The notes below the pieces were generated by a model that searched no databases, was not told the DNA's origin, and saw nothing but the letters and a program-made list of their open reading frames with translations. Below are positions 44,754 to 62,878 of a stretch of DNA of 64,000 nt, piece by piece (position 1 is the first letter of the stretch; every line of letters begins with the position of its first letter). The translations under genes and the position numbers were made by a program. Source of the stretch: an uncultured Gemmatimonadaceae bacterium (GTDB lineage: Bacteria; Gemmatimonadota; Gemmatimonadetes; Gemmatimonadales; Gemmatimonadaceae); assembly GCA_963740355.1 (NCBI GenBank), contig CAVUDW010000003.1:672001-736000 (forward strand), in the 5' to 3' direction.

Positions 44754-44773
44754 ACTGAACGCAGTCCTGCTCG

Positions 44774-46677: not shown

Positions 46678-46684
46678 TTACCGC

Positions 46685-49387
46685 TCAGGGTACCGCGCGC
46701 GGATAGCTCAGCATGTTCACCAGCAACTTCGCCGCACCGGCCTGCGCGCCTTCCAGTTGCTGCGCGAGGCAGAGCGAGGTCACCATGATCGTGCCCTTCC
46801 CGACCGGTGCGATCAGCACCGAGGGCTGGACACTCCGACGCGAGTCGTCAGCTGCGACGAGCGGGATCTTCCAACCCTGGTAGATCATGCTCGACAGGCT
46901 GCAGTTTCGATCGCCACCCCACGACTCGAGATCGGTGGCGGTGACGATATTGGGACGTGTGAACAGTGGTGAGCCGGGATCGGCCAACTGGAACTCGGCA
47001 CCACGAGCTTCCTCTCCGCCAGCTGCCTCGCGCATCGCGACTCCGAACGGGAACAACGGGATTCGCGAAAGCTCCGCGCCGCCTGGCAACACGACCACCA
47101 CACCGCCGCGCTGCATGAACGCCCGCAGTGCGGGCACTGCCAGCAGCGACGACTCGCTGCGCAGGGCGCCGGCGCCGATCAGGACCGCCGTGACATTCGT
47201 GAGATCCGCCACTGGCACCAGGGCAAGGTCCAACGACTGCACGCTAAGGCGAAGCTGTTGAAATGCCGGTCGCAGGTCTTCCGTGCCGCGGATGTACGCC
47301 ACGCGAAAACGCGCCGGGAACCGCAGGTTCACACTCTCGACGCGGTCGCGCGCGAACCGCACGAAGTGTTGCGACGGGATGTGTGGGTACTCGTTCACCA
47401 CGGCGCCGAGCGTGAATTCCCGTTGCGCTGCCGCCAGTGCGCCAGCCGGCAGCACTGGAAGTGCGGCCACACTCCTCGCGCTGGCGGCAATGGCATGGGT
47501 GCCCATCGGCACAGCGCCACGCAGGCGAAAGAAGACGTTGCGCGCGCTGAACGGCGGCAGCGGGACTGTCTTCGACACCGAATCTGCGACAAGGCCGACA
47601 GGTAGTTGCAGCGAGACCGCGACGGTGTCGGCCGTCGATCGCGCATTCGAGACGTAGACGCGGAAGAGTCGGTCCACGGTCATCCCTGCTCGCTCGTACT
47701 CAGCACCGCGCTCGAAGAGCAACGATGTCTCGGGCACGCCGAATACGGGACGCCTCGCATCACCACGCAGCATTGTCGCAGTTCGCGTGACGATCGGCTG
47801 CACGATGACGGGTACTTCCACCCCTGCGAGCGACATGGTCGCCTCGAGACGACTGGCCGCGATGCGGTCTTCCCCCATCACCAGCTGACTCGCGACCGAA
47901 TTGCCGCGCGTGATCGGGTGCTTCTGCAGCAGCGTGCCTTCCACCAGTCCGTTGATCTGCCACCAGTGATACGATGGCGAAAGAAACCGCAGCTGCGTCG
48001 TGAAGCGAGTCGTGCTGCCTGGCTGCAGCATCACCATGCTGTCGGCGAACACGATTGACAGCCGACCCTGTACCGACGAGGCCAGCCGGCGCAGCCCAAT
48101 CGGAAGGCCACCGCCGTTGAACACCGTCAGCGCGACACTGACGGAATCACCGGCGGCCACCATCTCTCGTTCGGCATTGGCATCGATCACGATACCTGCG
48201 GCGTCCATCATCAGCGCCGTGGCGCGTTCGCGCAGTGTGTTCAAGGCCACCGCGAGGTCGCCCGCACCACCATCACAACTCGGCACCCCGGACAGGTCGG
48301 GACAGTCGAGCTCCAGTCGATTGGCGATGCTGAGGCGCGCGACCGCGGCCAACCGTGCGGCAAGCGTGTCGGCAGGCAGTCTCGCAGATTCTTTGGTGAG
48401 TCCGGCAATGGCTGCACGCAACGAATCGAACCCCGCAAGGAACTCCGGCTTCACGATCGCGCGGTGTCGGGCGAAGGTGGTGTCGAGCGTGCCGAGCAGT
48501 GATCCATCGCCACCGACCCGCGCGCTATCGAGTCGCAGCACGCGCTGCATTTCGCCGAGCGCCGGGACTGGGCCCACGCCCTGTGTGCGCTGGAGACGTC
48601 GGAGCTCTGCGCCCAGTTCAGCGTATGTCTGCTTCGCGCTGCGATCGTACTCGCCGATGTTGATTCGCACCAGGCGCGCTCGTGAGCCATTCGCCGTGTC
48701 ACCGGCGCTGGTGACGAGTGTGAACAGGCGCGACACTGGCCACGCTGGCAGTCGGCCCGTCGTGCGCGGCTGCAGGATACTGGTATCTGCAGCGACCTTG
48801 TACGCGATTGCCAGGAGCCGCGCGGTGTAGCGACGCGCCGCGTCCGTCTCACTGTCGGCCGACACCAACGCGATCACCACCTGTGGCCGGAATGCGCGGA
48901 TGATCGAGACCATGTCGATCAGCAGCGAGTCGCGCGGCCACGCGCGCGCAGCCAACGAATCGCTGTTGCTGTTGCCGAGGTCGAATGCACGCGTGAAGAA
49001 CTGATGCGCGCCGTCGCGCTGGCGTTCTGCCAGGAGTTCTGCCGTACGCACCACGGCCAGGGGCGCGTTGCGTTCAGCGCCGGCGACATTTCGGCCAGCC
49101 TCACCGCGAGTGAGCGAAAGAAAGGCGGTCTCGACATGGCGTCCGCCCCTGAGCCACGCGATCAGCGCATTGTCTTCATCCTCCGGGCGTGTCCCGACCA
49201 GCAGCACACGCGTCGTCGTGCCGAGGTGGGCGGCATCGTCGCGCCACTGCTGCGCTTGCAGGCATGACGGCGCACCGATGGGCACCAGACCAACCAGCAC
49301 CGTGATCGCAGCCACGACAAGGCGACGCAGCGAGCGTGACGCGACTCGTTCCAAGCGGCAGAACGGCATCAGTGTCGCGCCAACCAC
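46685..49387 (-). CDS. PIG-L/LmbE family deacetylase-like multidomain secreted protein with a degenerate active site
   Basis: RPEDED in place of HPDDE, LTRGEAG.N, VRTAELLA.R..DGA.QFFTRA.D.G and IRAFRPQV, followed by beta-sandwich domains and a GATase-like tail. Confidence 0.75.
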   Translation of the reverse strand: MVGATLMPFCRLERVASRSLRRLVVAAITVLVGLVPIGAPSCLQAQQWRDDAAHLGTTTRVLLVGTRPEDEDNALIAWLRGGRHVETAFLSLTRGEAGRNVAGAERNAPLAVVRTAELLAERQRDGAHQFFTRAFDLGNSNSDSLAARAWPRDSLLIDMVSIIRAFRPQVVIALVSADSETDAARRYTARLLAIAYKVAADTSILQPRTTGRLPAWPVSRLFTLVTSAGDTANGSRARLVRINIGEYDRSAKQTYAELGAELRRLQRTQGVGPVPALGEMQRVLRLDSARVGGDGSLLGTLDTTFARHRAIVKPEFLAGFDSLRAAIAGLTKESARLPADTLAARLAAVARLSIANRLELDCPDLSGVPSCDGGAGDLAVALNTLRERATALMMDAAGIVIDANAEREMVAAGDSVSVALTVFNGGGLPIGLRRLASSVQGRLSIVFADSMVMLQPGSTTRFTTQLRFLSPSYHWWQINGLVEGTLLQKHPITRGNSVASQLVMGEDRIAASRLEATMSLAGVEVPVIVQPIVTRTATMLRGDARRPVFGVPETSLLFERGAEYERAGMTVDRLFRVYVSNARSTADTVAVSLQLPVGLVADSVSKTVPLPPFSARNVFFRLRGAVPMGTHAIAASARSVAALPVLPAGALAAAQREFTLGAVVNEYPHIPSQHFVRFARDRVESVNLRFPARFRVAYIRGTEDLRPAFQQLRLSVQSLDLALVPVADLTNVTAVLIGAGALRSESSLLAVPALRAFMQRGGVVVVLPGGAELSRIPLFPFGVAMREAAGGEEARGAEFQLADPGSPLFTRPNIVTATDLESWGGDRNCSLSSMIYQGWKIPLVAADDSRRSVQPSVLIAPVGKGTIMVTSLCLAQQLEGAQAGAAKLLVNMLSYPRAVP

Positions 49388-49959
49388 TCCGCGAGATCGA
49401 CATGCCCCCGCTCGCGGGCGATGTCGGCAGGTGTCTTCCCGTCCGGTGTGCGTACATCCGTCCTCGCGCCGCAGGCCAACAACAACTCCGACGCGGCCTG
49501 GTCACCGCGCGATGCCGAGAGGTGCATCGGCGTGTAGCCTTGCGCATCGGCCGACGACGGATCGCTCCCTGCCGCCAGCAGCGCGGTGATCACGGACATT
49601 TCGCCGCGACCGGCCAGTGAGGCATGGAGCGGAGTGTTGCCTTGCGCGTTGTGTGATCGCGCGGAGTGGCTGGCTCCGGAGCGCAGCAGTCGCACGACGA
49701 CACTAGCGTATCCGAAGTAGCCCGCCAGATGCAATGCCGTCCAGCCATCGGGGCTGTAGACCTGTATGTCTTCTGATTGGCGCGACAGGCGCTCGGTGAT
49801 GTGCCCGAGGTCCCCGAACGCCGCCAGCTCTGGCAGTGTGAGCGGTGCGCCGGCGGCGAGTGATTTGGCCTTGTCGCGGTCACCCATGTACAGCGCCATC
49901 AGGATGTCGGATGGCGCACCGGGAGTGAGCGCGGCGGACTCCGTTGACTCAGCCATCAT
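49369..49959 (-). CDS. Ankyrin repeat protein
   Basis: DGWTALHLA, GNTPLHA, GYTPMHLSA and DGKTPADIA. Confidence 0.9.
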   Translation of the reverse strand: MMAESTESAALTPGAPSDILMALYMGDRDKAKSLAAGAPLTLPELAAFGDLGHITERLSRQSEDIQVYSPDGWTALHLAGYFGYASVVVRLLRSGASHSARSHNAQGNTPLHASLAGRGEMSVITALLAAGSDPSSADAQGYTPMHLSASRGDQAASELLLACGARTDVRTPDGKTPADIARERGHVDLAEWLARH

Positions 49960-50012
49960 TCCCCCGAGCGGAAGTCGTGGCTGCCGCGCGGGAGTCGGTC
50001 AGTCGTGGTGTG

Positions 50013-51137
50013 TCAGTCGACTGGCCAGCTCACCGCCGAGTCGTCGTCCGACGTCTCCGGCACAGCATCATTCTTGCCCGCGGACTTTTCCTCGGCAACC
50101 ACTTCGCGCCACCATGGCGTGAGATAATCAACACGTAATGGTTCGACCGGCTGGCCGAGTTTTGGCGTCAGCAACTGGATCCCTTTCGTGGGAGCGAGCT
50201 GCGCCAACGTCTCGATCGGTTGGTCCCACGCGTGCATGGCGAGGTTGAACGTGCCCCAGTGAATCGGATGCAGGATGCCGCTGCCGAGCATGGTGCGGGC
50301 TTCGAGGGCGTGTTCCGGTCCGAGGTGAATGTCGCCCCAGGCAGGGTGATAGGCACCGATCTCCAGCAGCACGAGGTCGAACTTCGGGAAGCGTTTCGCG
50401 ATCTCGAGGTATTCCGGCGTGAGTCCCGTGTCGGCGCCGTGGAAGACCGAGTGACGCGAGCCTTGCAGGTGGAATGAGGACCACGCGGTCGCATTGCGAT
50501 CGAGCAGGGTGCGTCCCGAGAAGTGTTGCGAGGGTGTTGCCGTGATCACGACACCGCTCGGCTCGAGCCACACCGTTTCCCACCAATCCAGCTCCGTGAT
50601 GCTATCCGCCGGCACGCCCCAGGCTTCGAGGTGTGTGCCGACGCCGAGCGAGGTGATGAAGCGCACGCCGCGCTTGTTGAGCGTGCGGATGGCCGCGCGA
50701 TCGAGGTGATCGTAGTGGTCGTGCGAGATCAGGACCGCGTCGATGTCAGGGAGTGCAGAGAGCGGGACTGGTGGCGCGTGGAAGCGCTTCGGTCCGGCGA
50801 ACGGCACTGGTGATGCGCGGTTGGTCCAGACCGGATCGGTGAGGATGCGCGCGCCGTCGATCTCGAACAGCATCGTCGAGTGTCCCAGCCAGGTCGTGCG
50901 CAGGCCCGTCTCTGGCGCCGTGCGCCAGGTCGCGCGCGGGTCCTCGAGCGGGATGGGAGCACCGGGCACGCGGCGTTCGCCGCCGCAGATGTACTCCTTC
51001 ATCGTCGGCAGTGCGGTGCCAGGCTTGAGGCCTGCGGAGGCGTTGTTCGTGTTGCGGAAGACGCGTCCATCGAAGCGCGGTGATGCGATCATCCGTTCGC
51101 GTCGGGCGATCTGGCTGGCGGTAGCGGCGTGCGGCAT
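50013..51137 (-). CDS. MBL-fold metallo-hydrolase (RomA/NAPE-PLD-like)
   Basis: WLGHST, TDPVW, ISHDHYDHLD, QHFSGR, ADTG and PIHWGTF. Confidence 0.92.
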   Translation of the reverse strand: MPHAATASQIARRERMIASPRFDGRVFRNTNNASAGLKPGTALPTMKEYICGGERRVPGAPIPLEDPRATWRTAPETGLRTTWLGHSTMLFEIDGARILTDPVWTNRASPVPFAGPKRFHAPPVPLSALPDIDAVLISHDHYDHLDRAAIRTLNKRGVRFITSLGVGTHLEAWGVPADSITELDWWETVWLEPSGVVITATPSQHFSGRTLLDRNATAWSSFHLQGSRHSVFHGADTGLTPEYLEIAKRFPKFDLVLLEIGAYHPAWGDIHLGPEHALEARTMLGSGILHPIHWGTFNLAMHAWDQPIETLAQLAPTKGIQLLTPKLGQPVEPLRVDYLTPWWREVVAEEKSAGKNDAVPETSDDDSAVSWPVD

Positions 51138-51510
51138 CGTCGGCGGTGTGGCGAAGGAAGCGGGGGCGGCAAGCGTAGGGGTTAAACTCGCCGCTCTGGT
51201 GCCGTGGGTCCAACCGGCCGATTGACCGGTGCGCCTTGGTCGCGAGGTTGGCGCATACGACGAACGGCCCGGAGAATGGGGGCTCCGGACCGTTCAGGTA
51301 CCGCGCGCACCTCAGAGTGACGCGTGGTATTTCAGACTCATCGTCGAGCCTGTCGTATGTGCGTGGAGCCGTGACCGCCGACCGCGGCGCCTTTGGTCTC
51401 GACTCCGATGGATAGACGACAGGGAGGCGCTGCTTTTCTCAAACCTCTATCTCAAACCTCTACGTCGACACGCGCCATCTGGATTCGGCGTGGTGCCGAA
51501 AGGCCCAGCC

Positions 51511-51981
51511 TCACGGTGCTGGGAGCGTGGCGGCGAGTGTGAAGGTCTTGGTGCCGACGTAGCGGTTGCTGGTATTGGTGAACCCGTCACCGGTGCCACG
51601 TGGATCGGCGCGGGTGATCTCGACCGTGTAGGGCTGGCCAGGCGTGAGCGGCTTGGCTGCCACGTCGGTGACGCCGCCGACGGGAATGGTGGTGCCGTAT
51701 TCGACGCCTGACTGGAGGCTGTTCTTGCCACTGGCGGCAATCGACCAGACGAGCGCGTCGCCGTAGCCCGATCCCGCCTGGGTCCCCTTGTAGACGCGCA
51801 CCAGCGCCGCGCCCTCGGGCGTCCACGCGATGCGCACCAGCGGCAGTGCGATCACGGGGGTGACGGTGATCGAGGGGACCTGCGACTTGTCGAACGAGTT
51901 ACCGCAGGCGGCAACGAGCGCGAGGCTGGCCGTCAGGAGAATGGTGCGGTTGCGGAGAACTCTGCCGAGTGGTGGGGGCAT
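51511..51981 (-). CDS. Hypothetical lipoprotein
   Basis: Lipobox VAAC, beta-rich mature part and host-like codon usage. Confidence 0.65.
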   Translation of the reverse strand: MPPPLGRVLRNRTILLTASLALVAACGNSFDKSQVPSITVTPVIALPLVRIAWTPEGAALVRVYKGTQAGSGYGDALVWSIAASGKNSLQSGVEYGTTIPVGGVTDVAAKPLTPGQPYTVEITRADPRGTGDGFTNTSNRYVGTKTFTLAATLPAP

Positions 51982-52007
51982 GGGTGGAAGGTACGACGGG
52001 GGGCGCG

Positions 52008-52308
52008 TCGGTGGGACTCTGCACGGGTACGGGCTGGCGCGGATCCGTGCGCGCGCGCAGGGGCGACCAAGCCTGCTGGGAATGCTCGGCCGGAAATTGG
52101 CGTTATGCAGCATTCTCGGACGGCCTGGTGCGGCCAGGCAATCCGACGCGAAATCGCAAGTTGTTGGTTTGTCTGGAGATACGCCGGCGTTTCGCCCGGG
52201 GAGAGTTTGATACGCCCGGATTTCGGTGACGTATAACGCTGGCGGCGCAGTGATACGAAGCTGTAGAATCAGGCAATAGGTTCTATTCTGTGCAATTAAG
52301 GGCTAGAC
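52008..52308 (+). repeat. ~300-bp integron Pc/attI-like platform, copy 1
   Basis: Diverged direct repeat of 59131-59428. Contains TAGAAT at 52264 and ends GTGCAAT-N5-GCTAGAC just before the first cassette-like ORF. Confidence 0.6.
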
Positions 52309-52323
52309 GCCCCGGAGGCATAG

Positions 52324-52653
52324 GTGCGAAAGTTGGCGCTGTACCTGGTGGGCTTTGCGATCGCGCATGTGCTGATCAACGTCGGCTTGACGATCGTGAC
52401 CTTCGGTGCAGTGATGCAGGGATTCGATGGCGGGCCAGTCGCGCCGCCACGACTGGTGTCATTCCTCATGACCGCCGTGGACGTCTTGAACTGGCCCTTG
52501 CGGTACCTGGCCCGTCCGACGATGTCAGGTCCGATGCAGTATGCGGTGCTGTTTGCCAACGGTCTGCTTTGGGCCATTGCGACCGTGTGCGTGTATGGCG
52601 CGATTCGCCACGGCCTGTCGCGCGACTTGCCTCCCGCAACTACCGCGGCGTAG
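52324..52653 (+). CDS. Hypothetical small membrane protein (cassette-like)
   Basis: RBS GGAGG plus GTG, and 2-3 hydrophobic segments. Confidence 0.6.
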   Translation: MRKLALYLVGFAIAHVLINVGLTIVTFGAVMQGFDGGPVAPPRLVSFLMTAVDVLNWPLRYLARPTMSGPMQYAVLFANGLLWAIATVCVYGAIRHGLSRDLPPATTAA

Positions 52654-52754
52654 CTGGATGGCAAACGTGGTGTTCACTCTGGCACGGTCAACTGGCGATG
52701 CACCATCGCAAGGCACGCTGACGGTGGCCCTGCCCCCAGACGTGGGCAGTCCGC

Positions 52755-52850
52755 GTCTTACCCGGGTTGCTGCTGCCAATGCGGCCGGCCATTGTTGAGC
52801 AGGATTAGGATCAGAAAGCCGCATTGCAGCAGAACCCCGTTACGTTGGCC
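52755..52850 (+). other. attC-like site
   Basis: GTCTTAC-CCGGGTTGCTGCTGCCAATGCGGC…GCCGCATTGCAGCAGAACCC-CGTTAC-GTTGGCC, an imperfect hairpin with unpaired bases. Confidence 0.65.
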
Positions 52851-52907
52851 CGAACCTAGAGGTGCGTCACATGCCATCGTATTCCAAGGCGAGCACCGTC
52901 GCGATCG

Positions 52908-53222
52908 TTGCGGCTCTCGCTGTTGACGTTCGGCGCCGTCGCGATCGTCCGGCCTGCGATGATTGGCTGGACTATGCTTATCGGGTTCGGGGGTGCAGGG
53001 CTTGTCTTTTTGCTCGGTGCGGGAGGCGTTGCGCGCCGACGTACTTCCGTGGCGTTTGGCGTGTACATGATCGTCTGCGCGGCGAAGTTTGGTACGGCAT
53101 TCGGTGGACCGGTCGCACCGCGATGGTTCGGGCGCTCGCTCACGCCACTGCTGCTCCTCGCAGTCGCGTGGTTCATTTACGAGTCGCGTCAAGACCGTGC
53201 TGGTAGCGTGCAGAGAGTTTGA
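52908..53222 (+). CDS. Hypothetical membrane protein (cassette-like, possibly 5'-damaged)
   Basis: Four hydrophobic segments, lying between attC-like sites. Confidence 0.4.
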   Translation: MRLSLLTFGAVAIVRPAMIGWTMLIGFGGAGLVFLLGAGGVARRRTSVAFGVYMIVCAAKFGTAFGGPVAPRWFGRSLTPLLLLAVAWFIYESRQDRAGSVQRV

Positions 53223-53351
53223 GCACGCCCCTTTTGGTGGCAAGGCACGCCAGCAGGTGCACCGTGGGTTGGCCGACGGTCTACCCCGATTGTCGGTTCA
53301 GGCTAACGCAGTTTCGTTAGGCCGATCCCAACCATTCATGTGAGGTGAGTC

Positions 53352-53843
53352 ATGTTGCAACCGACCGTTCGGGTTTTTGCGCTCGTGCTGTCCGTGATCA
53401 TCGTGGCTCCCGCTCGCGCGCAGCGCAGCGAGGTGCTGTCACGGGCGCCGGCGCTGCACTGGACATTTGAGCAGCCGGAACCCGCAGCGCGAAATGAGCG
53501 GTCGAAGCCGCAGAGCCCGGCTGCGGTGGATCTTCTCCCCGTGTGCGCCATGCCAACGGCAGGCGCCGCATCAGTCGAAAGCGCGCCGATGCCAATAGCA
53601 CGCAGCGACTCGGCAAGGATGGACCGCATGCCGATCGTGCCGTCGCACTGCCGGATAGCGCGGACCGAGTCTTTTGCCCCGCTGGTGTGGACAGCCTCCG
53701 CCGTCGATCCTCGGCCTGCCTGCACCATGCCCGTGGCGCAGGCCGGCGATGCCGACAATATGCCGATGCCGATCTCGCGCACCGACACGACGAGACTCGT
53801 GCCGATGCCGGTTGCGCCATCGCAGTGTCGCAACGTACCGTAG
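53352..53843 (+). CDS. Secreted protein with two Cys-bracketed Met-Pro-rich repeats
   Basis: RBS GAGG, signal peptide (ARA/Q), and CxMP…MP…MP…CR twice. Confidence 0.65.
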   Translation: MLQPTVRVFALVLSVIIVAPARAQRSEVLSRAPALHWTFEQPEPAARNERSKPQSPAAVDLLPVCAMPTAGAASVESAPMPIARSDSARMDRMPIVPSHCRIARTESFAPLVWTASAVDPRPACTMPVAQAGDADNMPMPISRTDTTRLVPMPVAPSQCRNVP

Positions 53844-54000
53844 GCGCGCACATCTACCGCGGACGTAGCGCCCAGTAAGCAAGAGTTCGGTCGGTACCCT
53901 GCATCGGCTTACGCCCTGTCTCGTTAGACCGCTCCGCTCGTCGCGCCCCGAGCACCAGAGACTGGTGAAACCCAGCCGCTGGGTTTCGTGTATCCAGACG

Positions 54001-54264
54001 ATGACTACCGTGCTGGTGGTCGCGGGGTTCCGTGTCCGCATCCTGCTCCCACCGCGGGAGCATCCGCCACCGCACGTCCACGTGACGCGCGGTGGCGCTG
54101 AGGTCGTACTCTTGCTGCCGGACGGGCGGGCCGGCGTCGTGGTGCGCACCGTCTACCGCATGCGCGATGCGGATGTCATCGCGGCCGTTCGACTGGTAGA
54201 GTCGAACGCGGACCTGCTCCTACACGCCTGGAGGACCTATCATGGCGATTCGACGACTGAGTGA
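54001..54264 (+). CDS. DUF4160 domain protein (putative TA component)
   Basis: M.TV…GFRVRI…REHPPPHVHV…W...HG. Confidence 0.85.
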   Translation: MTTVLVVAGFRVRILLPPREHPPPHVHVTRGGAEVVLLLPDGRAGVVVRTVYRMRDADVIAAVRLVESNADLLLHAWRTYHGDSTTE

Positions 54265-54712
54265 TGCAGAAATCCTGCAGCAAATTCCGCCCGCCCGTGT
54301 GGCGGAGCAGGCAGCTCGCAAGCGCGGCCACCGGGCGCGTGCCGTCCGGTTTGATCGGGCGAAGGGACGAGTCGTGCTGGAGCTCTCGAGCGGTGTGCTG
54401 TTTGCTTTCCCGATTGCCGGCATACCAGCATTGCGCCGTGCAACGCCGGCGCAACTCGCGCAAGTAGAAACGAATGCGTCGGGCAGCACGCTGCGGTGGA
54501 ATGCCATAGACGTGGACATGAGCGTCGCCGGGTTGTTGCTGGCGGCGGTTGATCCGGCGGAGCGGCGGCGATATCTCGCATCGCTCGCCGGGCACGCCAC
54601 CTCGCCCGCCAAGGCGGCGGCCGCACGGGTCAATGGTGCAAAAGGCGGCCGGCCGCGGAAGGCGGCGAGTGGCGCGTTGCCGACGCTACGGCGCAAACCG
54701 ATCGCGGGCTAA
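54242..54712 (+). CDS. DUF2442 domain protein (putative TA partner)
   Basis: L.SG…FP…P.L..AT..QL..V…G..L.W..IDVD.SV.GL and a S.AKAAAAR.NGAKGGRPRK tail. Confidence 0.85.
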   Translation: MAIRRLSDAEILQQIPPARVAEQAARKRGHRARAVRFDRAKGRVVLELSSGVLFAFPIAGIPALRRATPAQLAQVETNASGSTLRWNAIDVDMSVAGLLLAAVDPAERRRYLASLAGHATSPAKAAAARVNGAKGGRPRKAASGALPTLRRKPIAG

Positions 54713-54773
54713 CCCAGTTTCGTTCGCGGTTTCCGCCCCAGTTCCGCTTGACGCCAGCAGGTGGTCGGGTGCG

Positions 54774-54787
54774 TCTTACTCGTAAGA
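54774..54787. promoter_or_regulatory. Palindromic operator TCTTAC-TC-GTAAGA upstream of the AbrB antitoxin
   Basis: Perfect 6-bp inverted repeat overlapping a -10-like TAAGAT. Confidence 0.5.
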
Positions 54788-54805
54788 TTCACTCCCCGAG
54801 CCCGT

Positions 54806-55069
54806 ATGGCCGACGCTGCCACCACGACCCTGTCGTCCAAAGGACAGGTCGTCATCCCTGAAGAGATTCGCGCCCGGCTTGGGCTCAAGACCGGCGCTCA
54901 GTTCGTCGTGGTCGGCGACCGGGACGTGGTCATCCTCAAGGTGCTCGAGCCCCCAGCGCTGTCGGAGTTTGCCGCCCTGACGGCCACGGCGCGTCGGGCC
55001 GCCAGGAAGGCCGGGCTCACACGACGGGATGTGACGAAGGCGGTGACGAAGGTGCGGCGCGGCAAATGA
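54806..55069 (+). CDS. AbrB/MazE family antitoxin
   Basis: TTLSSKGQVVIPEEIRARLGLKTG. Confidence 0.9.
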   Translation: MADAATTTLSSKGQVVIPEEIRARLGLKTGAQFVVVGDRDVVILKVLEPPALSEFAALTATARRAARKAGLTRRDVTKAVTKVRRGK

Positions 55070-55476
55070 GAGTGGTCGTGGACACCAACGTGCTGGTGTC
55101 CGGCCTGCTCTTCGGCGGGGTGCCTGAGTAGATCCTGGTGGCGTGGACATCCGGCGCGTTCGTGCTTGTTGTGGCAAGTAGCTGTGCGCTTGCGCTCGTG
55201 CTGCTTGTCGGCGAACGCCTACTAGCCTCCGACGACGAAGTGTTTGCTATCAGCCGGAATACTTTTGCTTTCTGGATTGCGACTGGCGCCGTCGCAGTTG
55301 TCTGCGGAGTTCGCGGCGGACAGCGCCTGCTGCACACGCGGGACTCCCACGGCGATGTGAGACAGTATGCGCGTGACCGGAGACGCACCTACCGCGTTCG
55401 CGTGCGAAATGTGCCGCCGGGAGGGGGCAGTTCGAACACATTTGACCTTATTCTCCTCGACCCGCCGATTCCATGA
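55066..55476 (+). pseudogene. PIN-domain toxin pseudogene fused to unrelated sequence
   Basis: MRVVVDTNVLVSGLLFGGVPE*ILVAW, with TAG at 55129-55131. PIN similarity ends near 55170. Confidence 0.8.
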
Positions 55477-55603
55477 TTCAGCGCGACAGGCGATGGCTAG
55501 CGGTCAGGCCGGGGCGCACGCACGCGGGTTACGGGCAATGCGCTGTGCTCAGCGTCGCGCTGCAGCAGCCACCTGACTCGGCAGGCCACTTCGCTCGGTA
55601 TCT

Positions 55604-56183
55604 GATGCCTGCCTCAAACTGCCTCCGACGTCGAGCAAGTGTGCTCGCTAGCGCAGCGCTCCTTGTTTGCATGAACCTGCGCGCACAGCCCGTTGAGCGA
55701 TCAGTGGGGCTCGGCCTCACGTTGCCCGCCGGAGACTACGCGAAGTTCCGGACGATCGGTCCAGCCGTGCGCGCTGGTGTCGCGTTCGGTGATCCAGACA
55801 CACGGCACGTCCGACTGCGCCTCGAGTTCGAAGCGGCGTGGCTACTGTCCCGCGGATCGAAACCGGGATTTGCGAACTCGGACCCAGGTTCACTCACGGC
55901 GACGAGTTTCCTGGCATCCGCCGTTTTCGGTCGTCGTCCCCGCGAGGGATTTGCGCCCTACTTCATCACTGGCGTCGCGCTGCAGAGCCTGACAATACCG
56001 GGAAGGCGCAATCCGTATGGATCGACTATTGGGTTGCGCGTTGGTGCGGGCATGGAGCGCCGCGTGGCCGCTCGACACTACTTCGTCGAGATCGCGCCAC
56101 ACCTGGCTCTGACTGACTTTGGCACGGGAGGCGATTTCGGCACGGCTGCGTACGTGCCGCTCGTGGTCGGCCTGCGCTTCTAG
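55604..56183 (+). CDS. Small outer-membrane beta-barrel-like protein
   Basis: Signal-like N-terminus, alternating beta strands, APYF..G and C-terminal VPLVVGLRF. Confidence 0.65.
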
Positions 56184-56262
56184 TTTGCAACCTGCTCGCC
56201 GTGTGGTCGCAGCTCCGCTCCGGTACGTGACAAGGCAATCAAGCTGGAAACCTTAGCGCCAC

Positions 56263-58899
56263 TCAGCGCCCCAGGAACGTGCGCGCCGCAGCCGTCACTG
56301 GGTGCGTCGGGCCGTAGCCATTGGTCAACGCCGTCACCGCCCGCTCCGCAGTACGCATCGCGTCAGCCTGCGCGCCCTGAGCGCGTTGTACGCGCGCATG
56401 CAAGAAGTCCGCGTGGCCCACGATGGCGCTGCGCGTCGATGCCAGCGAGTCCACTATCGCCAGCGTCCGCACGCGTGATGCCGCGGCGTCGGCACCTTGC
56501 AGGTCACCGTCGATGAATCGCCACTCGCCGAGCGTTAGCATCGGGAAGATGAAGAACGCCCGCGGAATGGACGCATCGGGCCAGAGCGAGTCGATAGCGA
56601 CGGCGAGGCGCTTCACTGGTTGCAGGGAATCGCCGGTTTGTCGGGCGATGCGCAGGCGCACCCATTCGCGTGTGAGCCAGTGCCACGGATACAGCACTTC
56701 GGCGCGTGATGCGAGGAGGCTGGCATCCTGGACGCGACCACTTTCGAGCGCGGCCCATGCGGCGTTTACGTCGTTGGTGACCTTCGCATTCTCCCCGAGA
56801 GGACCTTGGGCGGCGAGCGCGATCCACTGGCTCGCCGAGTCCGTCAGGCCTGCTCGCAGCAGAACCTGTCCATACACGTGGGCGAGATACGGCGCCACCG
56901 GTGCAGCGCCGTTCTTGCGTTCCGCGCGCAGTACGATCGCACGATAGCTGGCAACGGCCTCCCGCATCTCCCCGAGGTCGAAGTACATCCGGGACATTGC
57001 TGCGGCGACGTTCGGTACAATCGGCGTGCCCAGATACCCCATCGATTCGGCCTCGGCGACAACACTGCGCTGCACCGCCAGTGCCTCCCTCGGGCGACCA
57101 GCCTTCTGAACGATGAGACCGAGACTGTTGAGGATGGCGAGTCGATTGAGCGATCGCTTCGACGCGCCCTCGCTGCGCTCCCCGTCGTCAAATACGACTA
57201 CGGCCTCTTTCAAGAGTGCGATGGCGCGTTCGTAGTCATTGTCCACCGCCGCCAGATCGCCTTCTGCCTGCAAGCAGAGGTGCGCATTCGCCTTCGGCCC
57301 GATCCGCGCCAGCGCTGCGCGACCTTCTGCAATGGCGGCCCGCGCCGAGTCGATCGCTCGCGTACGCATGAAATTTTCAGCGCGCGTGCACGAAATCGAC
57401 GCCGCGATGTCGAGTTCGCCCGCCGTGTAAGCGATGGCACGGGACCGGGCGAGCAGTGCAAGAGAGCCACCAACGTCGCCGTTTTCGAATAGTTGTCCCG
57501 CAAGGTCCGTCATTACGAGCGCAGCAGTGCGGGGTTCGGAGCCGAACTGTTGCTCGATCACGTCCACTGCGTGCATCAGGCGTCCGCGCGCATCGAGCGG
57601 CTTGCCGTCCACTCCAGGCGTGTCACTGGCAAGCACCTGCGCCGCCGCGAGGAAACCCTCCTGCGCGCGAAAATTTCGCTCGGCCACGCGCCGTTGCCGC
57701 TCCGCCTCCGACCGCTGGCGATAGGACACGACCGTCGCGGTGACCAGTGCAGCGCCCACCACGGCGGCGACCGCAAGTCCCACCCGATAACGCCTCGCGA
57801 ACTTCGCGGCGCGGTATCCCAAGGCATCTGGGCGGGCGGACACCGGCTCATGATTGAGCCAACGGCGCAAGTCGTCTGCCATCGCCGCAGCGGTCTCGTA
57901 GCGTTCCCCAGGCACCTTGCGCAGCGCCTTTCGCAGGATGGCATCAAGGTCGCCGAGTTCCGTGAGCGCGGGTTCCTGTTGCAACGCGCCCTGTGCGTAC
58001 TCCGCTCTGGTGGATGCGCCGCGAGCGGTTGGATGACGATTCGTGAGCAGCAGATACAGCATGACACCGGCGCTGTAGATGTCGGATGCCGGGCCAATCG
58101 CCTCGCCACGGAACTGTTCGGGCGATGCAAACGCCGGTGTCAACGCTTGATGCCCCTGCTCCGTCACGTCAGCGATGTTCCCTTCGCTGGCGATGAGGCG
58201 CGCGATCCCGAAGTCGAGCAACTTCACCGTACCATCTCGCGTGACCAACACGTTCGACGGTTTCAGGTCGCGATGCACGATCAGGTTCGCATGCGCATGT
58301 CCGACTGCGGAGAGGACCTGCAGCATAAGCTGTACGCGCTGCGCGATAGTAACGGTTGTGCGCGTGGCGTACGCATCGATCGGTTCGCCGTCGATGTATT
58401 CGAGCACGAGGAATGGCTGACGCTGATCGCTCACTCCCGCATCGAGCAGACGCGCAACATTCACGTGTGCAAGTCGAGCGAGGGCCGTCCCTTCGCGACG
58501 GAAGCGCTCGATCCCCGAGCGCCCGATCAGCGACAGGTTGAGGAGCTTGACCGCGGCCGATCCTTCAAAGCTGCCATCTGCCCGTGTTGCGAGCCACACA
58601 CTCCCCATGCCGCCGTGCCCGATGGGCCGATCGAGCATCCAGGCGCCAATCCGCATCCCGGCCAGCGACGGTTCGCGTTCGAGCATCGCTGCCAGTGAAG
58701 GCATCGCGGCGAGGGGCGCGGAACCAGCGCCCTTCCAGGTATCGCCAGACCGGAGAATCTCGCCGAGGGCCTGCACGACCGTCGCGCTTTCACGCTGCAA
58801 GTCATTCAGCCATCGGGTTCGGTCCTCCGGCGGAAGATCCAGCGCCTGATCGAGCAGTGGACTGAGTCGCGCGTACAACGATTCCGACAGCGATGACAT
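56263..58899 (-). CDS. Hanks-type Ser/Thr protein kinase with a TM helix and TPR-like C-terminus
   Basis: IGHGGMGSVW, AVK, HRDLKPSN, LLDFGIA, LTPAFASPEQ and SDIYS.G. Confidence 0.93.
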   Translation of the reverse strand: MSSLSESLYARLSPLLDQALDLPPEDRTRWLNDLQRESATVVQALGEILRSGDTWKGAGSAPLAAMPSLAAMLEREPSLAGMRIGAWMLDRPIGHGGMGSVWLATRADGSFEGSAAVKLLNLSLIGRSGIERFRREGTALARLAHVNVARLLDAGVSDQRQPFLVLEYIDGEPIDAYATRTTVTIAQRVQLMLQVLSAVGHAHANLIVHRDLKPSNVLVTRDGTVKLLDFGIARLIASEGNIADVTEQGHQALTPAFASPEQFRGEAIGPASDIYSAGVMLYLLLTNRHPTARGASTRAEYAQGALQQEPALTELGDLDAILRKALRKVPGERYETAAAMADDLRRWLNHEPVSARPDALGYRAAKFARRYRVGLAVAAVVGAALVTATVVSYRQRSEAERQRRVAERNFRAQEGFLAAAQVLASDTPGVDGKPLDARGRLMHAVDVIEQQFGSEPRTAALVMTDLAGQLFENGDVGGSLALLARSRAIAYTAGELDIAASISCTRAENFMRTRAIDSARAAIAEGRAALARIGPKANAHLCLQAEGDLAAVDNDYERAIALLKEAVVVFDDGERSEGASKRSLNRLAILNSLGLIVQKAGRPREALAVQRSVVAEAESMGYLGTPIVPNVAAAMSRMYFDLGEMREAVASYRAIVLRAERKNGAAPVAPYLAHVYGQVLLRAGLTDSASQWIALAAQGPLGENAKVTNDVNAAWAALESGRVQDASLLASRAEVLYPWHWLTREWVRLRIARQTGDSLQPVKRLAVAIDSLWPDASIPRAFFIFPMLTLGEWRFIDGDLQGADAAASRVRTLAIVDSLASTRSAIVGHADFLHARVQRAQGAQADAMRTAERAVTALTNGYGPTHPVTAAARTFLGR

Positions 58900-59130
58900 G
58901 AAAGCGGTGTTGGAGACCTGGATCGCCCAGCGGCAGAGACCAGCGTAGACATCACGGCTCACCAAGAATCACCTCGGGACCACCGTTGCCAAGTGCCCCG
59001 CGTCAGATGGCCGGGCCATCGAACCGAAGCACACACGTCTCAGGAATCGAAAGATCTGGGCCGAAGGCGACAAGACCTGCCAGTGATCGGCAGCCGCGGA
59101 GGCTCGGCGACGAATGCACTGTCACCGCAT

Positions 59131-59428
59131 TCGGTGGCACTCTGCGCGGATTACAGGGCGTTACCCTGCGCGCGTAGGGGCGACCAAGCCTGCTGGGAGT
59201 GCTCGGCCGAAAATCGGCGTTGTGCAGCAATCTCGGAGGGCGTGGTGCGGACTGGGACGGCGACGTGGAATCGCAAGTCGTTGGTTTGACTGGAGATACC
59301 TCGGCCGCTTCGTCTGGGAGGGGAGGACGATACGCCCGGATTGCGGTGACGTATGGCGCTGGCGGCGCAGTGGTGCGCAGCTATAGAATCAGGCGACTGG
59401 TTCTATTCTGTATAATTATGGATTCGGC
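59131..59428 (+). repeat. ~300-bp integron Pc/attI-like platform, copy 2
   Basis: Diverged repeat of 52008-52308. Contains TAGAAT at 59384 and ends GTATAAT-N5-ATTCGGC. Confidence 0.6.
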
Positions 59429-59588
59429 GGCGACCAACACAGCCTCCCGTTGAATGTTCCCGAGCGATACCCTCCCTCGAACTCGTAACCCTCGACGTAC
59501 ACGAGACCGTGGCTTCGTCGCGGCGGTTGGAACGTTGATGCCCAAGCGATCGTCACGCACACCGAGCGGCCGCACAACGCGCCCGGCC

Positions 59589-59961
59589 ATGGAACGGCTG
59601 GCACGTGGCTTAGCCATCGCGTCCTGCTGTGCATTCGCTGCCTGTAACGACGGCCCAACCGCAACGCCCACACCCGTCACACGCGGTGCGCCCGGCATCA
59701 CCATCTGCGCCGGTCGACTGGCCGGCGTCGCGACGCGGCAGCTTGCAAGCGGCTGGTGGGTTCACGAGGCTAGAGCTCAGCACGGTGTGGCTCCCGGCCG
59801 ATGTGCGTCCATCAGCGACACTCCAGCAGGTCGCCGCAGCGTGTCGGGCGTCCATCGACGTCGACACAGCGAAAGGCCACGGGCTTGACGTCACACTGAC
59901 GCGACATGGAGCGCAAGCGGCACTGCAGCTTCGCTTGCCGGAATGCGAGGTCCTGCAGTGA
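59589..59961 (+). pseudogene. Possible frameshifted lipoprotein cassette
   Basis: MERLARGLAIASCCAFAAC lipobox, with a plausible continuation in another frame to TGA 59961. Confidence 0.35.
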
Positions 59962-60032
59962 ACGTGGGTCGCGCTAGTCTGCGTCGGTTTGCCAGCTACT
60001 TAAGCGATACGCTGAACACGAACCTCAAATAC

Positions 60033-60707
60033 ATGATTCGCCAGCGTTCGATTGTCTCTCTTCTGCTCATCCTCGCAGCTGCTGCGCCCGCTGCAACGGC
60101 TCAGGTATCGCGTGAGGTGCGCCTACCTACGCGCACGGACACACTCGTGGCACGCTACGGCACCACGATCATCGGTCGTGGGATCACGGCGCGCGCCTAT
60201 CGCGGAGGCGAGTTGCAGCAGGCCTACGTGTGGCAGAGCGCCGCCGATGGATCGAGCACCACGGATTCGCTTTGGCTCGACACCATGTCGGTGCAACCGT
60301 GGCGCGAAGTGCGGGTTATTTCTGACACCGCAGTGCGCATCACCTTTGGGAAGGGTCGTGTAGACGTTCGTACGATAGTCGCCGGACGCGAGACCAGTCG
60401 GCGTGGCATCAGTGCCCCGACGCCGTACCACTCGTCTGCCTCACTCGAGGTGATCGCCGCCAGTATGCAGATGCAAGTGGGAGCGACGGCCGACGTGAAT
60501 GCATACTATGCGCCGCCATCCAACTTGGGGTTTCAGGTGATCCGCCTGCGCGTCGTCGCCCGCGACACGGTGCGCGGCACGGATGCCTGGCGTGTCGTTG
60601 CGAGCACGCCGACCGGTAGTACCACATTCTGGATCAGCGCAACAAGTCGTGAGGTGTTGCAGTATGACGTCCGTGAAGGAGCGGCGCTGATCACATTTCG
60701 TCGCTAG
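60033..60707 (+). CDS. Secreted beta-rich hypothetical protein (DUF3108-like)
   Basis: Signal peptide (ATA/Q), DS…D…L.P and DAWRV…TFWI. Confidence 0.65.
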   Translation: MIRQRSIVSLLLILAAAAPAATAQVSREVRLPTRTDTLVARYGTTIIGRGITARAYRGGELQQAYVWQSAADGSSTTDSLWLDTMSVQPWREVRVISDTAVRITFGKGRVDVRTIVAGRETSRRGISAPTPYHSSASLEVIAASMQMQVGATADVNAYYAPPSNLGFQVIRLRVVARDTVRGTDAWRVVASTPTGSTTFWISATSREVLQYDVREGAALITFRR

Positions 60708-60710
60708 TTC

Positions 60711-60807
60711 ATCCTACCAATCGTCGCGGCGGCCAATGCGACCCGTTGTACGTGAGTAGGAGAAGGTTTCGTGTGGTCGCGTTGCAGTCGGCGCGGTTCC
60801 GTTAGAT
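60711..60807 (+). other. attC-like site (degenerate)
   Basis: ATCCTAC…GCCAATGCGACC…GGTCGCGTTGC…GTTAGAT, starting just after a stop codon. Confidence 0.55.
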
Positions 60808-60837
60808 GCTAGTTCCACCCGAGAAGCGAGTTGTCTG

Positions 60838-61335
60838 GTGACGCGTATCCTGCGCGGGGCGATGTGTGGTCTGGCGCTCTACGCCGCAGCGTGTGCCCGC
60901 ACCGCGCCGCCGTTTATCGCCGATGCTGGATCAACCACCATCAACATCAGTGAACAGGCCGCGGCCGCTGGATTCCATCCCGACGCTTGGGTCGCATCCA
61001 TGGGCGCCGTTGCGGCGGTGGAAATCCAGAATCAACCGGTCCGCGTGGTCCATGTAGTGCCGAGCCGGCTGCGGGTGCGTCTCGGAGACACGATTGCGCC
61101 ACTCCACGTGATTCGCGTGAGCGGTCTGGATTCAGCCGGGACAAACATCCCAGGCGTGACACCGCTGTTCGGCCCGTTCCGCCCAAGGGGCGTCGTACGT
61201 CCGCTTCCAAATGGGCTGTGGCTCGCGGAGCGCGTCGGTCAATCGGACGTTGAGGTTCGCGTCCTACGGATTGCCCACGTTGTGAGCAACGACACCGCGA
61301 TGGTTCGGTCGGTGACGGTAGAAGTTGTGCCGTAG
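60838..61335 (+). CDS. Hypothetical lipoprotein (cassette-like)
   Basis: YAAAC lipobox and an Ig-like beta-rich C-terminus. Confidence 0.55.
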   Translation: MTRILRGAMCGLALYAAACARTAPPFIADAGSTTINISEQAAAAGFHPDAWVASMGAVAAVEIQNQPVRVVHVVPSRLRVRLGDTIAPLHVIRVSGLDSAGTNIPGVTPLFGPFRPRGVVRPLPNGLWLAERVGQSDVEVRVLRIAHVVSNDTAMVRSVTVEVVP

Positions 61336-61344
61336 GGCGGGCGA

Positions 61345-61442
61345 ATTCAACCCCGGGTTGCTGCTGGCGCTGCGGCCGACGTATTCTGAGCAGGAGAGCC
61401 ATTTGTCTGCCGAAGCTGCAACAAAACCCAGTGTGGTCAGAC
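61345..61442 (+). other. attC-like site
   Basis: ATTCAAC-CCCGGGTTGCTGCTG…GCTGCAACAAAACCC…GTCAGAC, the same family as the site at 52755. Confidence 0.6.
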
Positions 61443-61478
61443 CTCACGCCAATCGCATCGGCACAAGATCCCATACCC

Positions 61479-62141
61479 ATGATGAGTCGACCGTTTCGAT
61501 GGGTGCGGCAGTACGGTGTGCTCGTTGCGGTCACTGCGCTGAGCCTGTACTACCTCTACCGAGCGGTCCACTACCGGTTTGTAGTCCCGGATCGACTTGG
61601 GCCTGCCCTGTTCAACAAGCAGGTGTGGTACGTCTCGCACCTGCTATTCGCCCTACCCGTCGTCCTCGGCGCGCCATTGCAGTTCATCGCACCCCTGCGA
61701 CGACGAGCACCGCAGTGGCATCGGGCGATCGGCAAGTGCTACGTCATTGGTGCGTCCGGTGCAGCCGTCTTGGCGATATACCTCGGGGCGATTGTCGGCG
61801 AGTATGAAGGCTCGAGGCTTTCCATCGCACTCACGGGACTGCTGTGGCTGTTCTTCACGCTGGCGGCGTGGCGGTTGGCCGTGGCGAAGAACTTCGCTGC
61901 CCATCGCGAATTCATGATTCGCAGCTACACGATGGCGCTCGTGCTCGTATGGTTGCGGCTGATGTACGACTGGCAGGACCTCCTGTTCTTTTACGTTACA
62001 AATCCAGACTTACGCGACGCGACGCGCGAATGGGCATCGTGGGTTGTGCCGCTCCTCGCGGTCGAGATGTGGCTGGCCTGGTACCCGGCCATCCGCAAGG
62101 GCCGAACGGCAGGTCCAAGTCCGGGGCCGCGCCAAGTGTAA
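61479..62141 (+). CDS. DUF2306 domain membrane protein
   Basis: H…G..QF...LRRR.P.WHR.IGK.YV and HREFMIRSY. The stop TAA lies inside the attC R'' box. Confidence 0.85.
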   Translation: MMSRPFRWVRQYGVLVAVTALSLYYLYRAVHYRFVVPDRLGPALFNKQVWYVSHLLFALPVVLGAPLQFIAPLRRRAPQWHRAIGKCYVIGASGAAVLAIYLGAIVGEYEGSRLSIALTGLLWLFFTLAAWRLAVAKNFAAHREFMIRSYTMALVLVWLRLMYDWQDLLFFYVTNPDLRDATREWASWVVPLLAVEMWLAWYPAIRKGRTAGPSPGPRQV

Positions 62142-62232
62142 CCCGGGTTGCTGCAGCCATGGCGACCGAGGTATTGTGAACATTACGGCCATTAGTCGGT
62201 CGCCGTGCAGCCGCCCCCCTTTCCAGTCAGAC
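62136..62232 (+). other. attC-like site
   Basis: GTGTAAC-CCGGGTTGCTGCAGCCATGGCGACCGA…TCGGTCGCCGTGCAGC…GTCAGAC. Confidence 0.62.
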
Positions 62233-62265
62233 GGAAGCCATCCGCCACGCTCGCTCGCGGAGAAC

Positions 62266-62718
62266 ATGTACAGATTGAAGAATTGGCCGCACATGTGGCT
62301 TCTGGTCGTAGCGTTTGCGGCAGCACCGCCCGTCGTCGCGCAGCAGTCCGAGTCCATTCCGATAGGCGCGCGCGTGCTCGTCACGCTCCGCGATTCGCTA
62401 CGCCCGTGGCTGTTTTCCGCGCGAACGACATCGCTCATTGGCACCACGATTGCCACAAGTTCGGACCAACTCACACTACGTCTCGCGAGCTCGGATACGG
62501 TTCGAATCTCGCGCGCGTCCGTTCGCGCGGTGGCCATCAGCCGTGGTGCATCTCGCGGACGGAGCTCCCTGCAGCAGGCAGCGTTCGGCGCGCTGGTGGG
62601 GAGCGTGGCCTCCATAGGCAAGCAGAAGCAGTGGGTCGGTGTCATCGCTGGGGCTGGAGTCGGCGCCGTCACCGGGTTTGTCGCGCCGTACGAGCACTGG
62701 CGGCGTGTCCGCTGGTGA
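62266..62718 (+). CDS. Secreted hypothetical protein with a C-terminal glycine-zipper-like segment
   Basis: GGAG RBS, signal peptide, G.RV.V…and GAGVGAVTG…E.WRRV. Confidence 0.6.
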   Translation: MYRLKNWPHMWLLVVAFAAAPPVVAQQSESIPIGARVLVTLRDSLRPWLFSARTTSLIGTTIATSSDQLTLRLASSDTVRISRASVRAVAISRGASRGRSSLQQAAFGALVGSVASIGKQKQWVGVIAGAGVGAVTGFVAPYEHWRRVRW

Positions 62719-62878
62719 AGGCGACTGTCGTCGCGCGCGACTGCCGTCTACCCCTGCTTTTTTGGATAACTTGTGTCGGTCTGGGCGAGCCAAATCTGGA
62801 TGACCATTTACATGGGGTGCATGGGACACCGTGGCAAAGTCTGAGGCATACGCGCGGATCAAGGCCTATGGCGGAGCG

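Follow-up and report, generated by a model that had tools for sequence, protein, structure and literature searches.

Integrase-less cassette arrays of a Gemmatimonadaceae genome are probably headed by orphan copies of an integron attI platform

Cassette arrays that are bounded by attC recombination sites and have no integrase gene (intI) nearby are known as CALINs, meaning attC clusters that lack an integron integrase. Their integrase, IntI, is encoded elsewhere, most of them are not near intI pseudogenes, and 95% are without an integrase remnant in the neighbourhood (Cury et al. 2016, PMC4889954). CALIN cassettes can be mobilised in trans (10.1101/2025.06.18.660453; PMC9668308), and the origin of CALINs and their capacity for further growth are a standing question in integron biology. 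Here, we describe a stretch of 64,000 nucleotides (nt) from an uncultured Gemmatimonadaceae bacterium (GCA_963740355.1, contig CAVUDW010000003.1, positions 672,001 to 736,000; hereafter the window), in which two diverged repeats of about 300 bp, head A (52008-52308) and head B (59131-59428), each precede a cassette array without an integrase. The repeats are probably orphan copies of the platform that, in one IntI lineage, spans the DNA between the intI stop codon and the attI site, at which cassettes would be docked by IntI acting in trans. The genome holding the window (5.4 Mb, with contigs C2 and C3 named below) is denoted G000 and other G-numbers are its relatives; C, D and E are further copies of the head in G000.

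CALINs carrying an attI platform of their own are a novel variation on the known CALINs. The G000 arrays resemble those described (PMC4889954) in being attC-bounded with IntI encoded elsewhere, but each of them opens with a recognisable paralog of the entire intI-to-attI platform, the heads making up a genus-wide multi-copy family. A similar arrangement was found in the Shewanella prophage M16-3, where a complete integron and an integrase-less array each start with an attI (Qi et al. 2023, PMC9892861). It is a single case with a short attI of 28 nt nearly identical to the cognate attI, whereas the copies of the genus studied here are modules of ~260-340 nt, occur as one to at least four orphans per genome in 9 of 20 genomes and, in the window, have diverged and carry altered cores. 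Integrase-less cassettes are also inserted by IntI in trans away from the integron at attG sites, giving single attC sites lacking integron-integrases (SALINs) (Loot et al., 10.1101/2022.09.11.507474). These attG sites are many, unrelated to each other in sequence and unlike attI, whereas the putative insertion points in G000 are attI-platform paralogs.

Class 1 integrons may lose their integrase while keeping a platform: the 5′ conserved segment (attI1 and the cassette promoter Pc) with a deleted intI1 has no working integrase and relies on IntI in trans. In this class intI1 is divergent, Pc lies inside intI1, and remnants of intI1 are normally visible. At the G000 heads, by contrast, no intI remnant is found, and the unit that is copied in this lineage reaches only as far as the intI stop. 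Among bacterial integrons, the 'inverted integrase' group has intI, attI and cassettes on one strand, as in the lineage described here. The same layout, with attI past the 3′ end of intI, was reported for archaeal integrons (Ghaly et al. 2022, PMC9668308). The archaeal and 'inverted integrase' descriptions cover the intI-linked site only and not detached copies. A literature search, partly swamped by unrelated word matches, found no description of multi-copy orphan platforms. For most integrons no attI is known, and attI sites are therefore never looked for.

Heads A and B are direct, non-coding repeats, and every block quoted in an earlier reading of the window, made from its letters alone and here called the sequence-only reading, was present in a MAFFT alignment of the two. 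BLAST of head A against the whole genome returned head B with 80% identity (E = 9e-70), the trimmed alignment was identical in 212 of 258 columns (82%), and a repeat search recovered stretches of 138 nt (86% identical) and 102 nt (83%). The longest identical run (23 positions) is no longer than expected under a uniform divergence of 18% (permutation P = 0.36), so the exact blocks alone give no evidence of constraint. As that reading had proposed, the similarity stops at a 7-N5-7 attI-like site, GTGCAAT-TAAGG-GCTAGAC (52290-52308) in head A and GTATAAT-TATGG-ATTCGGC (59410-59428) in head B. Its statement that neither copy has an integrase holds as well: tblastn detected no IntI remnant in the window, where the best match (E = 0.002) fell inside an unrelated gene (48922-49242) and nothing was near head A or B, and blastn and tblastx searches for intI remnants upstream of the heads gave composition-level noise only. 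The genes preceding the heads, for a lipoprotein and a Ser/Thr kinase, are divergent and unrelated as stated; the intI of this lineage sits upstream on the same strand as the cassettes and is not divergent as in class 1.

The sole integron integrase of G000 over the TIGR02249 cut-off (386 bits, cut-off 265) is encoded at C3:2343147-2344193, 1.6 Mb from the window heads, by 349 codons without internal stops; the other four TIGR02249 matches in the genome are Xer-like (at most 87 bits). This intI is upstream of ~17 attC-bounded cassettes on the same strand, which span ~15 kb, and makes up with them the one complete integron of the genome (C3:2327940-2344193, loci L051 and L110). An intergenic repeat family of 78 nt in the window matched the dense repeat series C3:2327940-2341784, adjoining intI. 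The attC consensus of this main array runs from R″ GCCTAAC to R′ GTTAGGC with an imperfect stem and unpaired bases (14 sites), and compensatory changes were seen in 5 of 20 predicted stem pairs. With an attC profile (nhmmer), 17 sites were detected in the main array and 11 elsewhere in G000. Four sites of the window, all on the + strand (52749-52859, 60705-60816, 61339-61451 and 62129-62241), scored 49-78 bits by a covariance model and are of the same type as the 17 beside intI; the co-oriented cassette-like open reading frames (ORFs) noticed earlier behind the heads are thus true cassettes. Arrays A and B have no integrase nearby, as is required of a CALIN. Array B, counted with four attC sites of at least 49 bits where at least two are asked for, belongs to the class, and array A, with one strong and four weak or collapsed attCs at cassette boundaries (E 0.1-0.8, covariance model), is by itself a borderline CALIN.

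The relation of the heads to integrons emerged from the closest IntI orthologs, all of the same genus (G006, 75% amino acid identity; G009, 73%; G016, 72%). The spacer from the intI stop to the core measures 340 nt in G006, 260 nt in G009, 329 nt in G016 and about 278-284 nt in G000, where the putative attI reads GTATAATTCTC|GTTAGAC, and all four spacers end in AATTCTCGTT[AG][AG][AG]. When ten intI-downstream spacers were searched with a profile made from the final 80 columns of A, B and C, those of G009 (E = 0.0014) and G006 (E = 0.0043) were matched. Conversely, a profile built from the G006, G009 and G016 spacers alone placed heads A and D ahead of every other match in the 5.4 Mb of G000 (E = 0.12 and 0.14). 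Local alignments of the last 110 nt, compared with 500 shuffles, gave z = 7.8 for A-G006, 7.6 for A-G009, 5.7 for C-G006, 5.4 for C-G010 and 4.4 for B-G010. In the A-G006 and A-G009 alignments shown, the offsets from the core match: ATAACGCTGGCGGCGCAGTGATA of head A aligns with ATAACACTGGCGGGGCGGTGATA of G009, and GCTGTAGAAT...TTCTGTGCAATT of head A with GCTGTAGAAT...TTCTGTCGAATT of G006.

Only with these closest IntI orthologs did the link surface. No head similarity was found at the first 30 intI loci of relatives (the best TIGR02249 scorers, with IntI ~46-58% identical to that of G000), and a BLAST search of 60 relatives with head A yielded nothing beyond GC-rich chance matches of 20-49 nt. 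Model R1, trained on heads A, B and C only and run on 100 relatives, had seven weak matches (E 0.0014-0.0074), none of them beside an attC, and these were taken as chance; R1 is too head-specific to detect the intI-adjacent homologs. The exact pattern of the 3′ module had no match in genome contigs or metagenome contigs, a 22-mer of the 5′ block had none in metagenome contigs, and a looser 3′ pattern hit 30 loci in unrelated taxa that were rejected, the similarity being confined to the pattern itself. Integron integrases are very common in the order: in a survey of 101 genomes including G000, a TIGR02249 match at E<=1e-40 was present in 77 and one over the family cut-off in 67, and several genomes had three or four matches; this tally, the BLAST of head A and the R1 scan take in the unpublished genomes G026, G075 and G076, on which no claim rests.

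Model R3 represents the last 134 nt and was trained on heads A-C together with the four intI-adjacent copies of G000, G006, G009 and G016. Searched against 20 genomes of the genus, it had matches at E<=0.05 in 14. The platform stands beside intI in seven genomes, namely the four of the training set and, as new finds, G013 (44.6 bits), G010 (42 bits) and G007 (34.6 bits), in which an IntI 70-72% identical to that of G000 is directly upstream of it on the same strand. All seven share the layout with intI upstream of the cassettes on one strand. Orphans, defined as platform copies without an IntI match within 1.5 kb, were found at 11 places in seven relatives (Table 1), and G010:C122, a further R3 match, is a candidate orphan. 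Many of the relatives are fragmented assemblies. Where a relative's orphan reached 24 bits and 500 nt or more of DNA was visible downstream, a co-oriented attC was present 570-730 nt away in six of six, and four others end at contig ends; for the intI-adjacent copies the same was true of three of the four assessable ones, G006 having none at E<=0.01. The sequence-only reading had staked itself on homologous copies adjoining intI or attC arrays, and they adjoin both: the search it proposed of the genome and its relatives yielded at least five copies in G000, intI adjacency in seven genomes and arrays behind the heads.

The heads cluster by genome: identity within the same genome was 89% for the G009 orphan and its own intI-adjacent copy, 73% in G010, 61% in G006, 69% between the two orphans of G014 and 80% between A and B of G000. 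Between the G009 orphan and the intI locus of that genome, the match covers 265 nt with 79% identity, from 5 nt past the intI stop to the core. These limits identify the copied unit as the stop-to-attI platform without intI, which bears out the earlier proposal of spread as a unit. In G006, the orphan heads of loci L139 (G006:C163) and L146 (G006:C35) are 58% identical, yet the 22 nt that follow the core are shared by both. The reason is either a first cassette common to the two heads or an assembly repeat at contig ends.

Within G000 the head family counts at least five copies. A co-oriented attC is located 3′ of all five, at a distance of 441 nt from A, 1277 nt from B, ~900 nt from C, 13 nt from D and ~680 nt from E, and five of the six orphan attC loci have a head; at the remaining one, C2:1692k, none was found in the R3 locus search. 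The chance of a co-oriented orphan attC at most 1.3 kb downstream of a random point is ~0.1% by our own arithmetic (11 orphan attCs in 5.4 Mb), and the association of heads with attCs is therefore not due to chance. The first cassettes behind A, B, C and D are mutually unrelated, and the head similarity ends at the site aligning with G|TTAG of true attIs (A at 52308, B at 59428, C at L049:16565), after which different attC-ended cassettes follow.

It is almost certainly not the case that the heads are a non-autonomous element resembling a miniature inverted-repeat transposable element (MITE), or a structured non-coding RNA gene, that came to lie near cassettes by chance. Both had been named as alternatives earlier, and a multi-copy, non-coding unit of ~300 nt with unrelated left flanks would fit either; the family, however, has only five copies in G000, all at array heads. 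Among the 25 longest repeat pairs listed for 44000-64000, none is an inverted repeat connecting the two ends of head A or of head B, and no target-site duplication is visible by eye around copy A. Rfam gave a single match for 50000-62000, a chance one elsewhere (E = 0.59). No conserved RNA structure was detected in the element, with an RNAalifold covariation term of +2.58 and minimum free energy z-scores from -2.6 to +0.5 on both strands, and thus without a consistent signal of stability.

Several observations weigh against the interpretation of the heads as docking platforms served in trans. The core triplets of the A-D subfamily are GCT, ATT, GCT and GCT, so that the altered cores of A and B reported earlier are real and also exceptional, for GTT is kept in 12 of 12 orphans outside this subfamily and in 7 of 7 intI-adjacent copies. 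Where GTTRRRY is expected, heads A and B read GCTAGAC and ATTCGGC, and in both of them AATT is separated from the core by one additional base. Heads A, C and D have GGG|CTA ahead of unrelated cassettes, although insertion by attI x attC recombination should reset G|TT; heads may have undergone gene conversion or mutated in parallel, or the crossover may have shifted. Arrays A and B are degenerate: they contain attCs that have collapsed, attCs with GTC cores, one attC that is truncated and the stump of a toxin gene. The statistics of the cross-family homology are moderate, and R3 was trained on a mixture of heads and intI-adjacent copies; its matches alone cannot prove the link between the two classes, which rests on the A/B/C 3′ profile against spacers, the spacer-only profile against G000 and the shuffle tests. 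The attC covariance model was built from 14 sites of the main array (27 pairs, R″/R′ included), and the tool itself describes its E-values as rough. The heads are not significantly similar to the intI-adjacent platform of G000 itself (shuffle z<=1.7), and recognition of attI is usually specific to the cognate IntI. Given this distance, the cognate IntI of heads A-D may have been another, now lost, copy. Finally, no sigma-70-type promoter was predicted in three copies of the element.

As GTT is kept in all 19 other copies, the window copies are argued to be decaying and not typical working sites. Judged from their sequence, heads A and B look like old, decaying members; with altered cores and degenerate attCs, they are probably no longer efficient docking sites, and their cassettes are probably becoming fixed chromosomal genes. 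The mutated cores of A-D and the degeneration of arrays A and B would also be expected of passive relics, left by whole integrons that were duplicated or acquired several times and from which intI was deleted later, with heads that were never used in trans and decay with their arrays. Genomes of the genus commonly hold more than one intI, with three TIGR02249 matches in G001, G005 and G014 and four in G012, and integrase loss has been proposed as one origin of CALINs (Cury et al. 2016, PMC4889954). We nevertheless regard such relics as an improbable explanation. An IntI remnant within 1.5 kb upstream is absent at 5 of 5 G000 heads and at 11 of 11 orphans of relatives. The G009 orphan is still 79% identical to the spacer, but its homology stops 5 nt past the stop, where an intI that had been decaying for as long should still be recognisable. 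The canonical core AATTCTC|GTTAG of the 12 orphans outside A-D is what selection for function predicts. Furthermore, array B shares a cassette with the main integron: the SnoaL-like cassette B5 is 90% identical (557/622) at the DNA level to C3:2332913-2332292, in a match that begins 3-4 nt from the cassette boundary and stops inside the attC.

The heads might instead be a cis-regulatory module, such as a promoter, a leader or a regulator-binding platform, with a secondary link to cassettes, which would be expressed when they land behind it. Many copies have a conserved AGAAT/TAGAAT motif ~45-60 nt ahead of the core, the L-box coincides in part with a TAAT-rich box, and classical integron platforms carry Pc (Cury et al. 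2016, PMC4889954). We find this very unlikely, in view of the promoter, RNA structure and Rfam results given above, and it leaves both the intI adjacency in seven genomes and the end of similarity at the attI core unexplained. Of the stand-alone unit of Pc and attI assumed in the sequence-only reading, the attI platform stands, being homologous to intI-adjacent DNA and heading arrays, whereas Pc was not recovered; the lack of predicted sigma-70 sites is weak evidence against Pc.

If the heads are orphan platforms served in trans, the stop-to-attI module (260-340 nt, non-coding) would be copied within the genome to new chromosomal sites without intI. Its 3′ end, with an L-box GTNYAAT, a spacer and an R-box, would serve as docking site, and the single IntI of the genome would in trans insert circular cassettes at the heads and so build satellite arrays, that is, CALINs. 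We infer both that new heads arise by within-genome copying and that the heads are used by IntI in trans, with cassettes entering there. More speculatively, the platform could be a copyable module of 'distributed integrons', in which one IntI lineage serves scattered docking sites and new sites are seeded by IntI itself, an extension that we hold to be rather doubtful. A possible seeding route would be recombination between a secondary site just past the intI stop and a downstream attC, yielding a circle of platform and cassettes that would then insert elsewhere. If this is true, CALINs could arise by IntI-seeded platforms as a third route, next to loss of the integrase and insertion at attG, and the number of attIs per genome would be an evolvable trait.

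In this genus, CALINs regularly start with a paralog of the docking platform of the resident integron, and several of these arrays may be served by a single integrase encoded elsewhere. The defined extent of the unit and the resemblance of copies to the platform of their own genome turn the notion of CALINs served in trans into a testable idea with a defined DNA substrate. They also provide a recipe for finding orphan attIs elsewhere: the spacer from intI to the first cassette is modelled, and the remaining genome is searched with it.

Table 1. Heads, cassettes and flanking genes of the window (window coordinates), further head copies in G000, and orphan copies in relatives.
Feature	Location	Strand	Remarks
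Left flank of head A: divergent gene for a 156-aa lipoprotein	51511-51981	-	Lipobox LALVAAC, no Pfam match; outside the integron; start codon 27 nt from head
Head A, probable orphan copy of the intI-stop-to-attI platform	52008-52308	+	R1 232.6 bits, R3 83.2 bits; best conserved in the last ~75 nt
attI-like simple site of head A, GTGCAAT-TAAGG-GCTAGAC	52290-52308	+	Aligns with AATTCTC|GTTAGAC of intI-adjacent platforms; core GCT for GTT; spacer +1 nt
Cassette A1: ORF for a 109-aa membrane protein (52324-52653) and full attC (52749-52859)	52309-52859	+	R″ GTCTTAC, R′ GTTGGCC; 78.4 bits, profile E = 3.8e-20
Cassette A2: ORF 52871-53206 and collapsed attC (53294-53331)	52860-53331	+	GGCTAAC-8 nt-GTTAGGC, hairpin lost; weak, 10.9 bits, E = 0.81
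Cassette A3: ORF 53352-53843 and degenerate attC ending CCCTGTCTCGTTAGAC	53332-53938	+	0 mismatches to the attC 3′ consensus; weak, 12.3 bits
Cassette A4: DUF4160 (53965-54264) and DUF2442 (54242-54712) pair and collapsed attC (54690-54737)	53939-54737	+	Weak, 13.6 bits, E = 0.1
Cassette A5: MazE-type antitoxin (54761-55069), partner-gene stump (55066-55131) and degenerate right arm of attC (55507-55595)	54738-55595	+	Weak, 13.0 bits, E = 0.16
Ser/Thr kinase with TPR repeats, 900 aa, between array A and head B	56263-58965	-	Pkinase 3.6e-39; chromosomal gene
Head B, probable second orphan platform copy	59131-59428	+	R1 225.7 bits, R3 79.1 bits
attI-like simple site of head B, GTATAAT-TATGG-ATTCGGC	59410-59428	+	Core ATT for GTT
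Cassette(s) B1: lipoprotein-like ORF (59454/59589-59888), DUF3108 ORF (59943-60707) and attC (60705-60816)	59429-60816	+	R′ GTTAGAT; 49.7 bits
Cassette B2: ORF 60838-61335 and attC (61339-61451)	60817-61451	+	R′ GTCAGAC; 51.3 bits
Cassette B3: DUF2306 membrane protein (ORF 61431-62141 as listed) and attC (62129-62241)	61452-62241	+	R′ GTCAGAC; 49.4 bits
Cassette-like unit B4: ORF 62267-62719	62242-62869	+	No recognisable attC after the ORF
Cassette B5: SnoaL-like gene	62870-63490	+	attC without its last ~25 nt (L′-R′)
Copy C	C2:1435561-1435830	-	Full; E = 1.5e-12 with the A/B profile, R1 183 bits
Copy D	C3:839187-839393	+	Without its last ~50 nt; E = 4e-7, 36.8 bits
Copy E	C2:1979601-1979681	-	Degenerate, weak R3 match; 16.4 bits, E = 0.044 over the genome and 7e-4 over the locus set
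Orphans of relatives	G009:C5; G015:C11; G005:C169; G014:C102, C21; G010:C125, C69, C93; G006:C35, C163; G008:C268		R3; G008:C268 weak

Other origins of the A/B repeat were rejected. A large segmental duplication is contradicted by the two 900-aa ORFs of the window, which are unrelated, and a coding element by the frame common to A and B, in which 5 synonymous and 12 non-synonymous differences were counted by eye and which is broken by indels. Head B is flanked by a 10 nt direct repeat, ATTCGGYGGC, with one mismatch (59128-59140 and 59421-59434), and head A has no such repeat. That head B might itself be a cassette, on account of this repeat, was rejected as well, head A being without it and no attC-like fold being present at the end of the element. 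Orthologs of the kinase located between array A and head B are found in G019 (82% amino acid identity) and G004 (77%), with neither head nor attC found nearby in either, and the ancestral state can therefore not be read from synteny.

Behind copy C, the array at C2:1421389-1435560 (locus L049, - strand) holds defence-type genes, with a TIR domain, Abi_C, GmrSD_N and a MAE_28990-like HEPN. Its attCs score 40-75 bits, and the R′ of the second is GTCAGAC, as in the two attCs of array B that read GTC at the core. The DUF2306 cassette of array B, flanked by two attCs, has an ortholog in G019 (G019:C252, locus L108) that is 81% identical and syntenic, ~1.6 kb upstream of the kinase ortholog; neither an attC nor a head is detectable at it. 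The G019 array may have decayed completely, or the gene may represent a stage of cassette gain or loss. Two joints in read contigs, 52786>61352 and 52837>62139, were rejected as cassette rearrangements, since both run from attC to attC and are repeat artefacts; the DNA sequencing runs searched carry 0.16-0.28 of the sampled words, in contigs of 180-750 nt.

In cassette A5, the MazE-type gene is overlapped at its stop by an ORF of 21 codons (55066-55131; MRVVVDTNVLVSGLLFGGVPE and then a stop). This ORF has no Pfam match, and from its motif we take it to resemble the N-terminal stump of a PIN-type toxin. In the collapsed attCs of array A (53294-53331, 53905-53938 and 54690-54737), an R″-like heptamer, GGCTAAC or GGCTTAC, is followed after 8-10 nt by a retained R′, and the hairpin is gone. 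The loss may have happened between AACCC repeats at the two ends of the hairpin. Such collapse looks like a route to cassette immobility, and with its core mutations and its hairpin-deleted and truncated attCs the window illustrates the fossilisation of arrays, by which mobile cassettes become ordinary chromosomal genes.

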